Source: Escherichia phage vB_Eco_BCPEco_001
Length of the DNA: 64,000 nucleotides
Reading direction: 5' to 3' (one strand)
Sequence record: PV295200.1
The notes under the pieces are model-generated. The model did not search any database. It was not told where the DNA came from and saw only the letters and a program-made list of their open reading frames with translations. This document shows positions 44,580-46,122 of this stretch, piece by piece (within the stretch, counting starts at the first letter, position 1; every line of letters begins with the position of its first letter). Both the position numbers and the translations under genes were made by a program.

Positions 44580-45160
44580 TGATTAAATTGGTATTCGCTT
44601 ATTCTCCAACTAAAACGGTCGAAGGCTTTAATGAATTAGCATTCGGTTTAGGTGATGGTTTACCATGGGGACGAATTAAAAAGGACCTCCAGAATTTTAA
44701 AGCTCGTACAGAAGGTACAATTTTGATTATGGGTGCTAAAACGTTCCAGTCATTATCTACATTACTTCCCGGTCGTAGCCATATTGTGGTGTGTGACCTT
44801 GCGCGTGATTATCCTGTAACTAAAGACGGCGATTTAGCACATTTCTATATTACATGGGAACAGTATATAACTTACATTTCTGGCGGCGAAATTCAAGTGT
44901 CAAGCCCTAACGCACCATTCGAGACTATGCTTGATCAGAATTCCAAAGTAAGTGTAATTGGCGGGCCTGCTCTGTTATATGCTGCGTTACCTTATGCGGA
45001 TGAAGTAGTTGTTTCTCGCATCGTTAAAAGGCATCGTGTTAATTCAACGGTTCAATTAGATGCAAGTTTTCTTGATGATATAAGCAAGCGTGAAATGGTT
45101 GAAACGCATTGGTATAAAATAGATGAAGTAACAACCCTTACGGAATCAGTATATAAATGA
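44579..45160 (+). CDS. frd: Dihydrofolate reductase
   Basis: 193 aa as T4 Frd. Confidence 0.92.
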
Positions 45161-45180
45161 AATAACGCGTGGCGGAAAAT

Positions 45181-45528
45181 ATGAATTTTAATTATTACCC
45201 TATTCTATTAGAAAAAGACGTGAAACAACCTAAATGGCAGGGTCCTCAGTTTATTAAAGGTGTCTATCAATTAGTAGTTCCTAAAGACAAGATTTATAGC
45301 AGTTGTTTCACTGAATCTGCTTGCAGTATTTTCGGTAATAGTTCTCCGTATTGGAATTTTGACATAAAGCTGGATAGAAATATCGATATTTGGTTGAAAG
45401 CTATGGATATTGGTAATATTACGTTTGATGAGAATAATTATCATATTATTGGTCGCTTTTCCAAACGCGGTAAAGAATTGTATTTCACGCCTGAAATTGA
45501 AAGAAAATTTGATGCTAAACCGTATTGA
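45181..45528 (+). CDS. Hypothetical protein (115 aa) encoded on an insertion between frd and td
   Basis: ORF between genes that I recall as overlapping in T4; flanked by AAATGAAA direct repeats. Confidence 0.45.
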   Translation: MNFNYYPILLEKDVKQPKWQGPQFIKGVYQLVVPKDKIYSSCFTESACSIFGNSSPYWNFDIKLDRNIDIWLKAMDIGNITFDENNYHIIGRFSKRGKELYFTPEIERKFDAKPY

Positions 45529-45573
45529 TTATTTAGCTTCATAAAATGTATTATAATTTATATAAGGTACTAA

Positions 45574-46122
45574 ATGAAACAATACCAATTTTTAATTAAA
45601 GATATCCTGGAAAATGGCTACGAAACCGATGACCGAACAGGCACAGGAACAATTGCTTTGTTCGGTACTAAATTACGCTGGGATTTAACTAAAGGTTTTC
45701 CTGCAGTAACAACTAAGAAGCTCGCCTGGAAAGCTTGCATTGCTGAGCTAATATGGTTTTTATCGGGAAGCACAAATGTCAATGATTTACGATTAATTCA
45801 GCATGATTCGTTAATCCAAGGCAAAACAGTCTGGGATGAAAATTACGAAAATCAAGCAAAAGATTTAGGATACCATAGCGGTGAACTTGGTCCAATTTAT
45901 GGAAAACAATGGCGCGATTTTGGCGGTGTAGACCAAATTATAGAAGTTGTTGATCGTATTAAAAAATTGCCAAATGATAGACGTCAAATTGTTTCAGCAT
46001 GGAATCCAGCTGAACTCAAGCAGATGGCATTACCGCCTTGTCATATGTTCTATCAGTTTAATGTGCGTAATGGCTATTTGGATTTGCAGTGGTATCAACG
46101 ATCAGTAGATGTTTTCTTGGGT
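45574..46122 (+). CDS. td: Thymidylate synthase, exon 1
   Basis: 183 codons ending ...DVFLG, then the conserved td intron 5' sequence begins. Confidence 0.9.

Follow-up and report, generated by a model that had tools for sequence, protein, structure and literature searches.

Deletion between short direct repeats is a well-documented mutational class in phage T4, as seen in the end-points of rII deletions. T4-type genomes also reportedly have plastic regions in which small open reading frames (ORFs) are shuffled as modules, with the promoter-early stem-loop (PeSL) cassettes that Arbiol et al. are said to have described in 2010, and the seg/mob homing endonuclease genes are small ORFs that can be present or absent between conserved genes. 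Here we compare with these systems the junction between frd (dihydrofolate reductase) and td in a 64,000-nt stretch of Escherichia phage vB_Eco_BCPEco_001 (PV295200.1), referred to below as the window, which matches the Tequatrovirus Shigella phage SHFML-11 at 100% identity. In T4 (NC_000866) frd and td overlap by ATGA with no ORF between them, whereas the window has exactly 417 bp extra between identical frd and td anchors. We conclude, with a probability of about 0.7, that this segment is a resident gene, td.1, together with its short flanks, and not a recent insertion, and that the empty junction of T4 is most likely the product of a later deletion between two copies of the repeat TAAATGAAA.

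The locus resembles each of the known systems in part. As in the rII deletions, the T4 junction equals the window minus one repeat copy and the intervening sequence; the difference is that the frd-td event is read from natural variants, and that the repeat copies hold a stop and a start codon, the product being a functional ATGA overlap. As in the plastic regions, the frd-td slot has alternative small-gene cassettes (td.1, orf68, both with a paralogue, or none) that are swapped independently of the flanks. However, frd-td has no detectable stem-loop of the PeSL kind (spacer fold z = -0.7), its boundaries are ATGA-type junctions and, unlike the hyperplastic regions, it lies inside the core nucleotide-metabolism operon. 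With the seg/mob genes td.1 shares its small size and its presence or absence between conserved genes near the I-TevI homing site, but it has no nuclease domain, has diverged vertically along with its flanks and is conserved across genera.

Identity and distribution of td.1

An earlier note on this DNA, made from the letters alone, had pointed to the ATGA overlap of T4 and had placed in the window a 417-bp segment from the frd stop (45160) to the td start (45574), with a 115-aa ORF at 45181-45528, a TATAAT and a Shine-Dalgarno sequence for td. The T4 record and our own reading of the window bore out every one of these observations, with TATAAT at 45552-45557 and the Shine-Dalgarno AAGG at 45564-45567, and the T4 reference lacks the ORF. 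The statement that the 115-aa protein belongs to no recognisable family did not hold. The ORF is named td.1 in the T6 record AY262134.2, with 99% amino-acid identity to T6 Td.1, and its product matches PHROG 1928 with E = 1.4e-35 (residues 4-111, profile positions 2-125 of 126). The window ORF is thus the same gene as T6 td.1 and RB32ORF229c, in the same frd-td position and in the same family, PHROG 1928, by hidden Markov model (HMM). It is labelled hypothetical protein in hundreds of genomes, and literature searches on td.1, RB32ORF229c and the frd-td slot returned nothing relevant. The segment, then, holds a known, already annotated but uncharacterised gene and is no new kind of element. Both td.1 and the segment as a whole are single-copy in the window.

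DNA of td.1 was found in 369 phage records, compared with 514-565 records that have the flanking frd and td sequence. When T2, T6 and the RB phages were compared, as the earlier note had proposed, the carriers were seen to include T2, T6, RB18, RB32, RB33 and RB51. The T4-type empty junction occurs in only about 28 records, mainly T4 stocks, the others being RB55, RB59, G2133, FL12, HY03, SG1, JEP6, FL18, G28, F1 and FN. Beyond these phages, at least five other genera have homologues of 32-66% identity in the frd-td interval. Matches of 28-47% identity were located there by tblastn in Klebsiella phage K65, Enterobacter phages Q7622 (Kanagawavirus) and CIP9, Salmonella phage STML-198 (Gelderlandvirus), Serratia phage CHI14 (Winklervirus) and Klebsiella phage PWKp16 (Marfavirus). 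Two metagenome contigs (L012 and L013) have td.1 at 63-66% identity, and Erwinia and Citrobacter phages gave tblastn sequence matches of about 30-36% identity. The gene has the same strand and the same frd-td position in the window, T6, K65, Q7622, STML-198, CHI14, PWKp16, L012 and L013. Its percentage identity to the window, set against that of Td in the same phages, is 64/86, 47/84, 32/81, 38/79, 33/79 and 32/77, so that td.1 identity broadly tracks Td identity, which is the pattern predicted by vertical descent at one locus.

The gene is under strong purifying selection: the ratio of nonsynonymous to synonymous divergence (dN/dS) is 0.01-0.09 in all pairwise comparisons but one (0.18, for a pair with few differences). 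In SHBML-50-1 a 2-nt deletion near the 3' end of td.1 gives a C-terminus of ...DAKPLII and a protein of 117 aa, and the spacer 5' of the gene is shorter by one A.

These data also bear on the suggestion that Td.1 is a free-standing homing endonuclease that owes its patchy distribution to homing. The BASEL records TadeuszReichstein, AugustSocin and others do label it "putative homing endonuclease", and td.1 is polymorphic for presence and absence right beside a td intron containing I-TevI. However, no nuclease domain of the GIY-YIG, HNH, LAGLIDADG, PD-(D/E)xK, His-Cys or EDxHD type was detected and there was no match in Pfam or to PDB sequences; the protein has merely 115 aa and is a predicted beta-barrel; the gene diverges along with its flanks instead of being near-identical across diverged hosts; it is conserved, in the same gene order, from genus to genus, and its start and stop codons often overlap its neighbors; and its presence showed no association with that of the td intron in the sampled phages. 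We consider homing very improbable, and found no sequence or structural support for the BASEL label.

Junction alleles and the empty junction of T4

The earlier note had also seen a junction sequence on both sides of the segment, AAATGAAATAA at 45155-45165 and AAATGAAACAA at 45572-45582. Exact identity covers the 9-nt TAAATGAAA, at 45154-45162 and 45571-45579 (12 nt if one mismatch is allowed), and the T4 junction falls within it, consisting of the window left flank, a single copy of TAAATGAAA and the window right flank with no base extra or missing. A general repeat scan of the window did not list this pair, which was verified by direct comparison. When pairs of 30-nt windows separated by 417 nt are placed at random in the window, only 0.6% share an exact match of 9 nt (P ~0.006), so the repeat is unlikely to be due to chance.

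It might nevertheless be merely the A-rich context in which genes of this phage commonly start, as the earlier note had allowed, with the T4 junction produced by another route, such as imprecise recombination, with selection then keeping the frd stop and the td start intact. Indeed, AAATGAAA is a frequent start context that the + strand of the window contains 16 times, several-fold more than expected from base composition; ATGA overlaps are the norm at the junctions of this operon in relatives, and the orf68 allele described below has only AATGA in common with the junction. Against this, the T4 breakpoint lies exactly inside the 9-nt identity, and short-repeat deletion is well documented in T4 from the rII work. 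We regard this alternative route as improbable.

Four junction forms, A to D, plus a variant A2, were defined among the closest relatives of T4. In allele A (JoYop, Shf125875) Frd has 205 aa, ending ...VYKNEIATGGKYEF before the stop, and overlaps td.1 by 11 nt, while the td.1-td spacer is 13 nt; in allele A2 (slur14) Frd is likewise extended, to 204 aa, and the td.1-td spacer is 45 nt. Allele B (the window, T6, TadeuszReichstein, SHBML-50-1) has a Frd that stops after VYK, a 19-20-nt spacer, td.1 and a 43-45-nt spacer. Allele C (fPS-65, fPS-2, Dhakavirus dhaeg; 163 records in total) has orf68 alone, overlapping frd by ATGA and td by TAATG, and allele D (T4, and also RB69 and VR26) is empty, with the ATGA overlap.

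The left junctions read TATAAAAATGAAATAGCTACTGGCGGAAAATATG in Shf125875, TATAAAAATGAAATACCGCGGGGTGGAAAATATG in slur14 and TATAAATGAAATAACGCGTGGCGGAAAATATG in the window. Residues K-N-E-I of the Frd tail are read from AAATGAAAT in alleles A and A2, and the JoYop counterpart of the left repeat is AAACGAAAT, with one substitution. The A-run of the window is 2 nt shorter than that of the extended-Frd alleles (AAA for AAAAA), which brings TGA into frame and truncates Frd after VYK. In JoYop, Shf125875, slur14 and other genera a C-terminal extension of Frd overlaps td.1, and the spacer at 45161-45180 appears from these alignments to be a frameshifted remnant of it. In all td.1-bearing phages of other genera the Frd tail after VY (GEKR, GEKREF, TPKDI, ERKL, ERT, VKTRL or GEFRG) meets or overlaps the td.1 start, and the frame of the tail in L012 and L013 is that of allele A. 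The 12-residue tail that follows VY in the 204-205-aa Frd of some close T4 relatives is KNEIATGGKYEF or KNEIPRGGKYEF, and it overlaps td.1.

In Shf125875 and slur14 the left repeat copy codes for part of the extended Frd tail, and it is therefore not an obvious target-site duplication. Flanking direct repeats are present, but they are equally expected as the substrate of a deletion. A transposable element is not supported, as td.1 is the sole ORF, there is no transposase or integrase, and convincing terminal inverted repeats are missing. An AT-rich inverted repeat of 9 nt without mismatch, TATATAAAT and ATTTATATA, does lie near the segment ends (45150-45158 and 45556-45564), its right arm within the 32-nt promoter-like element described below; it is probably due to chance.

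On the reading that we favor, PHROG 1928 proteins of about 110 aa would have been present between frd and td already before the split of the enterobacterial T4-like genera, and the simplest order of events would lead from A to B by loss of 2 nt from the A-run and from B to D by recombination between the 9-nt copies. Allele D is best read as B minus everything between the copies of TAAATGAAA, which could have been removed by recombination or by replication slippage at short direct repeats. Such a deletion would yield the ATGA overlap automatically, since the frd stop lies in the left copy and the td start in the right copy, and only the form with three A residues (B) gives the exact T4 sequence when the repeat is deleted.

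We infer the direction of this change from divergence and from the frd tree. The synonymous divergence (dS) of td.1 is 0.41 between the window and JoYop and 0.83 between the window and Shf125875. For frd it is 0.41 between the window and JoYop and 0.12 between the window and T4, and for the first 315 nt of td 0.80 and 0.23, respectively; within clusters td.1 has values of 0.12-0.16 and frd of 0.08-0.13. In a neighbor-joining tree of frd, the empty-junction phages T4, FL12, G28 and SG1 (D) fall in a 100%-bootstrap clade together with B (including the window), A2 and C alleles; the sister of this clade is the td.1-bearing pair JoYop and Shf125875, followed by dhaeg, RB69 and VR26. As td.1 and frd have equal dS (0.41) and T4 is nested, td.1 predates the split of the two Tequatrovirus-type frd lineages, and loss in the T4 lineage is favored.

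Several observations weigh against this history. RB69 (Mosigvirus) and VR26 (Gaprivervirus), which by Frd identity represent the nearest of the other genera, share the empty VYK-stop and ATGA junction, so that an empty ancestor of the closest relatives of T4, with td.1 regained later, is possible. The alleles of the T4 group carry 18 (or 16) extra nt compared with L012 and L013, and the left repeat lies within them. Cassettes are frequently exchanged by recombination at the frd-td site: the flanks of the window (B) and fPS-65 (C) are nearly identical (dS 0.05 for frd and 0.08 for td), and because recombination decouples the cassette from its flanks the frd tree is an imperfect guide to the history of the junction. 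A shared flank haplotype was sought among the empty-junction phages, but G28, whose flanks are 96.9% identical to td.1-bearing phages and 96.5% to T4, is about equally close to both groups and thus not informative. The full td.1-orf2-orf68 array described below was not found in any of the closest relatives of T4. In addition, the promoter proposed for the spacer is called from its motif match, and Td.1 has no significant sequence or structural match to any characterised protein.

A rival reading is re-insertion: the ancestor shared by the closest relatives of T4 would already have lost the array and have had the ATGA overlap, and a td.1 fragment of a related phage (for example a circular excision product) would have integrated at that junction through the short TAAATGAAA homology, duplicating 9-11 nt, with the extended Frd coming later by a +2 change in the A-run. 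In its favor are the occurrence of one junction in three genera, the position of the left repeat within the 16-18 nt missing from more distant relatives and the clear evidence of cassette exchange independent of the flanks. However, the equal dS of td.1 and frd places the gene there before the clusters split, with the T4 frd inside one cluster; the frame of the extended Frd agrees with that of the homologous tail in distant relatives and is present on two haplotypes; the segment has no integrase, transposase or nuclease; and the PHROG 1928 family is native to the frd-td slot in distant genera. Re-insertion is unlikely in our estimation, though its probability is not negligible. The insertion or homing-like event at an ancestral overlap that the earlier note proposed is left unsupported, given a common gene, synteny across genera, co-divergence with the flanks, nested empty junctions and a coding left repeat.

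If a deletion did produce the T4 junction, then what textbooks show for T4, frd and td overlapping by ATGA, appears to be an uncommon and derived allele at a place where most relatives carry a conserved gene, and the ancestral gene order of these relatives could not safely be read from T4. Repeats at ATGA-type junctions would offer a simple route to the loss or exchange of whole genes that keeps the stop and start of the neighbors.

One further locus is of note for its own composition. Shf125875 (NC_025437) is classified as a Mosigvirus, but the dS of its frd is 0.15 to the Tequatrovirus JoYop and saturated to RB69, while the 5' end of its td has a dS of 0.37 to RB69 and 1.28 to JoYop. By this sequence comparison its frd-td locus is a mosaic across genera.

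The td.1 paralogue, orf68 and the Td.1 protein

A second ORF (orf2) comes after td.1 in Q7622, STML-198, CHI14, PWKp16, L012 and L013, and is a paralogue of td.1 as judged by alignment and by its own match to PHROG 1928. Residues W19, G27, G91, F93, K95 and G97 are invariant in both td.1-family alignments (A1 and A2), and A2 adds L9, Q16, Y29 and R92. The paralogue has an extra N-terminal insertion (..WALVIQGPxPTIxxYKRNP..). PWKp16 and L012 have an additional gene of 68-69 aa (PHROG 9550) directly 5' of td, making the full array td.1-orf2-orf68. In L012 the junctions frd/td.1, orf2/orf69 and orf69/td are ATGA overlaps and td.1 and orf2 overlap by 17 nt.

The product of orf68 (PHROG 9550, MSNKLKVKDVP...) is unrelated to Td.1, and 163 phage records contain the gene. 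Between Dhakavirus dhaeg and Tequatrovirus the gene shows 98% DNA identity despite flanking frd and td sequences with dS of about 0.9 to 1.6, which implies a recent transfer of the cassette between genera. A search of the 45-nt window spacer for traces of orf2 or orf68 gave just suggestive short matches (ATGCTAAACC for the orf2 start, and GGTACT compared with GGGACT at the orf68 end) that we judged too short to use.

An AlphaFold2 model of Td.1, built from a 22-sequence alignment, was confident, with a predicted local distance difference test score (pLDDT) of 81 and a predicted template-modelling score (pTM) of 0.77. It is mostly beta, with one helix followed by a long C-terminal hairpin that contains a conserved GRFxKxG motif. 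Td.1 is predicted to be a small compact beta-barrel with only a weak resemblance to the OB (oligonucleotide/oligosaccharide-binding) fold of nucleic-acid-binding domains such as RPA, SSB, Teb1, S1 and HIN. There was no match to Td.1 in Pfam at E <= 10, in PADLOC or by PDB sequence search, and Foldseek of the model against the PDB gave nothing significant. Against BFVD, a library of predicted viral protein structures, every Foldseek match was an uncharacterised protein from a T4-like phage, with phages of Pectobacterium, Serratia, Erwinia and Aeromonas among the sources. When 1.84 billion representative proteins were searched exhaustively with the HMM, 52 clusters were obtained, all of about 95-150 aa bar five giant proteins.

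The five giant matches are repeat proteins of 1,218-3,675 aa. Three were scanned with Pfam, which found mainly He_PIG, PKD or Ig repeats. P0029, P0064 and P0065 (2,052-3,675 aa) score through 4-12 repeated stretches, and Pfam gives He_PIG, NHL, PKD and Ig repeats in two of these. We rejected the giant proteins as relatives of Td.1, as their scores are probably spurious sums over beta-rich repeats.

With low confidence, we propose that Td.1 might be a non-essential accessory factor expressed with Frd and Td, which may bind nucleic acid or a nucleotide ligand. The start/stop overlaps of td.1 in most genera suggest translational coupling. A more specific idea, which we hold to be doubtful, is that Td.1 and its paralogue form a phage-specific small-barrel family tied to thymidylate/folate metabolism, acting as an accessory or scaffold subunit of the T4-type complex that synthesises deoxynucleoside triphosphates (dNTPs) or as a counter to host defences directed at nucleotide pools. 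The frd-td slot would then be a socket for exchangeable accessory genes, whose ATGA junctions permit precise gene loss or swap. In either case, Td.1 is a strongly constrained uncharacterised protein among the nucleotide-synthesis genes of T2 and T6, and is open to deletion and testing there.

Expression signals and other features of the locus

The features of the window locus, and the loci of related genes in other phages, are given in Table 1. As td starts 45 nt from the td.1 stop and has its own AAGG 6 nt upstream, it is no longer coupled to frd in the window, which answers in the negative the earlier note's question of whether translational coupling persists.

Table 1. Features of the frd-td locus in the window and related loci in other phages
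Feature	Position	Strand	Basis or remark
frd (dihydrofolate reductase), 193 aa, ending ...TESVYK; TGA stop at 45158-45160	44579..45160	+	ORF list; 100% match to SHFML-11 frd; C-terminus compared with relatives
Left direct-repeat copy TAAATGAAAtAA; holds the last frd codon and TGA stop	45154..45165	+	Sequence reading, junction comparison
20-nt spacer AATAACGCGTGGCGGAAAAT	45161..45180	+	Junction alignments
Alternative td.1 start, GTG, giving 119 aa	45169	+	
td.1, 115 aa, PHROG 1928, predicted small beta-barrel	45181..45528	+	ORF list, family alignments A1 and A2, AlphaFold2 model, dN/dS
td.1-td spacer, 45 nt	45529..45573	+	Junction alignments; JoYop and Shf125875 have just 13 nt (TTATAGGTGCTAA)
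Promoter-like element, 32 nt, missing from the JoYop-type allele	45533..45564	+	Alignments, motif match
td Shine-Dalgarno AAGG, 6 nt 5' of ATG	45564..45567	+	Direct reading
Right direct-repeat copy TAAATGAAAcAA; holds the td start codon	45571..45582	+	Sequence reading, junction comparison
td exon 1 (frame open to in-intron stop); td start 45574	45574..46125	+	ORF list; T4 and T6 annotation
td group I intron	46126..47135	+	ORF list; T4 and T6 annotation
I-TevI, in the td intron	46254..46991	+	ORF list; T4 and T6 annotation
td exon 2, end	47450	+	ORF list; T4 and T6 annotation
Extended-Frd loci	L018:126-743, L016 (Shf125875):94-711, L020:173-787		
td.1 of SHBML-50-1	L019:774-1127		
td.1 of TadeuszReichstein, labelled "putative homing endonuclease"	L010:873-1220		BASEL record
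td.1 paralogue loci	L003:2826-3185, L007:1809-2156, L008:1814-2188, L015:1439-1792, L012:4332-4673		
orf68 loci	L009 (Yersinia phage fPS-65):850-1056, L014:1497-1703, L015:1797-2003, L012:4670-4879		

Middle promoters that depend on MotA have a box of consensus (a/t)(a/t)TGCTT(t/c)A and, about 12 bp downstream of it, a TAnnnT -10 element. The 32-nt element in the td.1-td spacer has a MotA-box-like aGCTTCA (45535-45541) followed by TATAAT (45552-45557) or TAATTT (45554-45559); the window spacer thus reads ttaGCTTCA, 12 nt, TAATTT (or 10 nt, TATAAT), with A replacing T before GCTT. Its 25-nt core is unique in the window. Based on this match, the spacer may contain a putative middle promoter of the MotA type from which td is transcribed in the window. 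Over the whole window there are 27 occurrences of GCTTYA-N10-13-TANNNT compared with 8.4 expected from shuffles, a three-fold enrichment that is consistent with many middle promoters. A generic scan for sigma-70 promoters showed no enrichment, and the best sigma-70-like match was weak (9/12 positions). The spacer has no terminator-like hairpin, Rfam family or stable RNA fold (z = -0.7).

The td group I intron did not appear in the Rfam scan output at E <= 1, and the ORF inserted in it is a likely explanation. One of the GCTTYA-N10-13-TANNNT matches lies in the td intron region, at 47044-47067.

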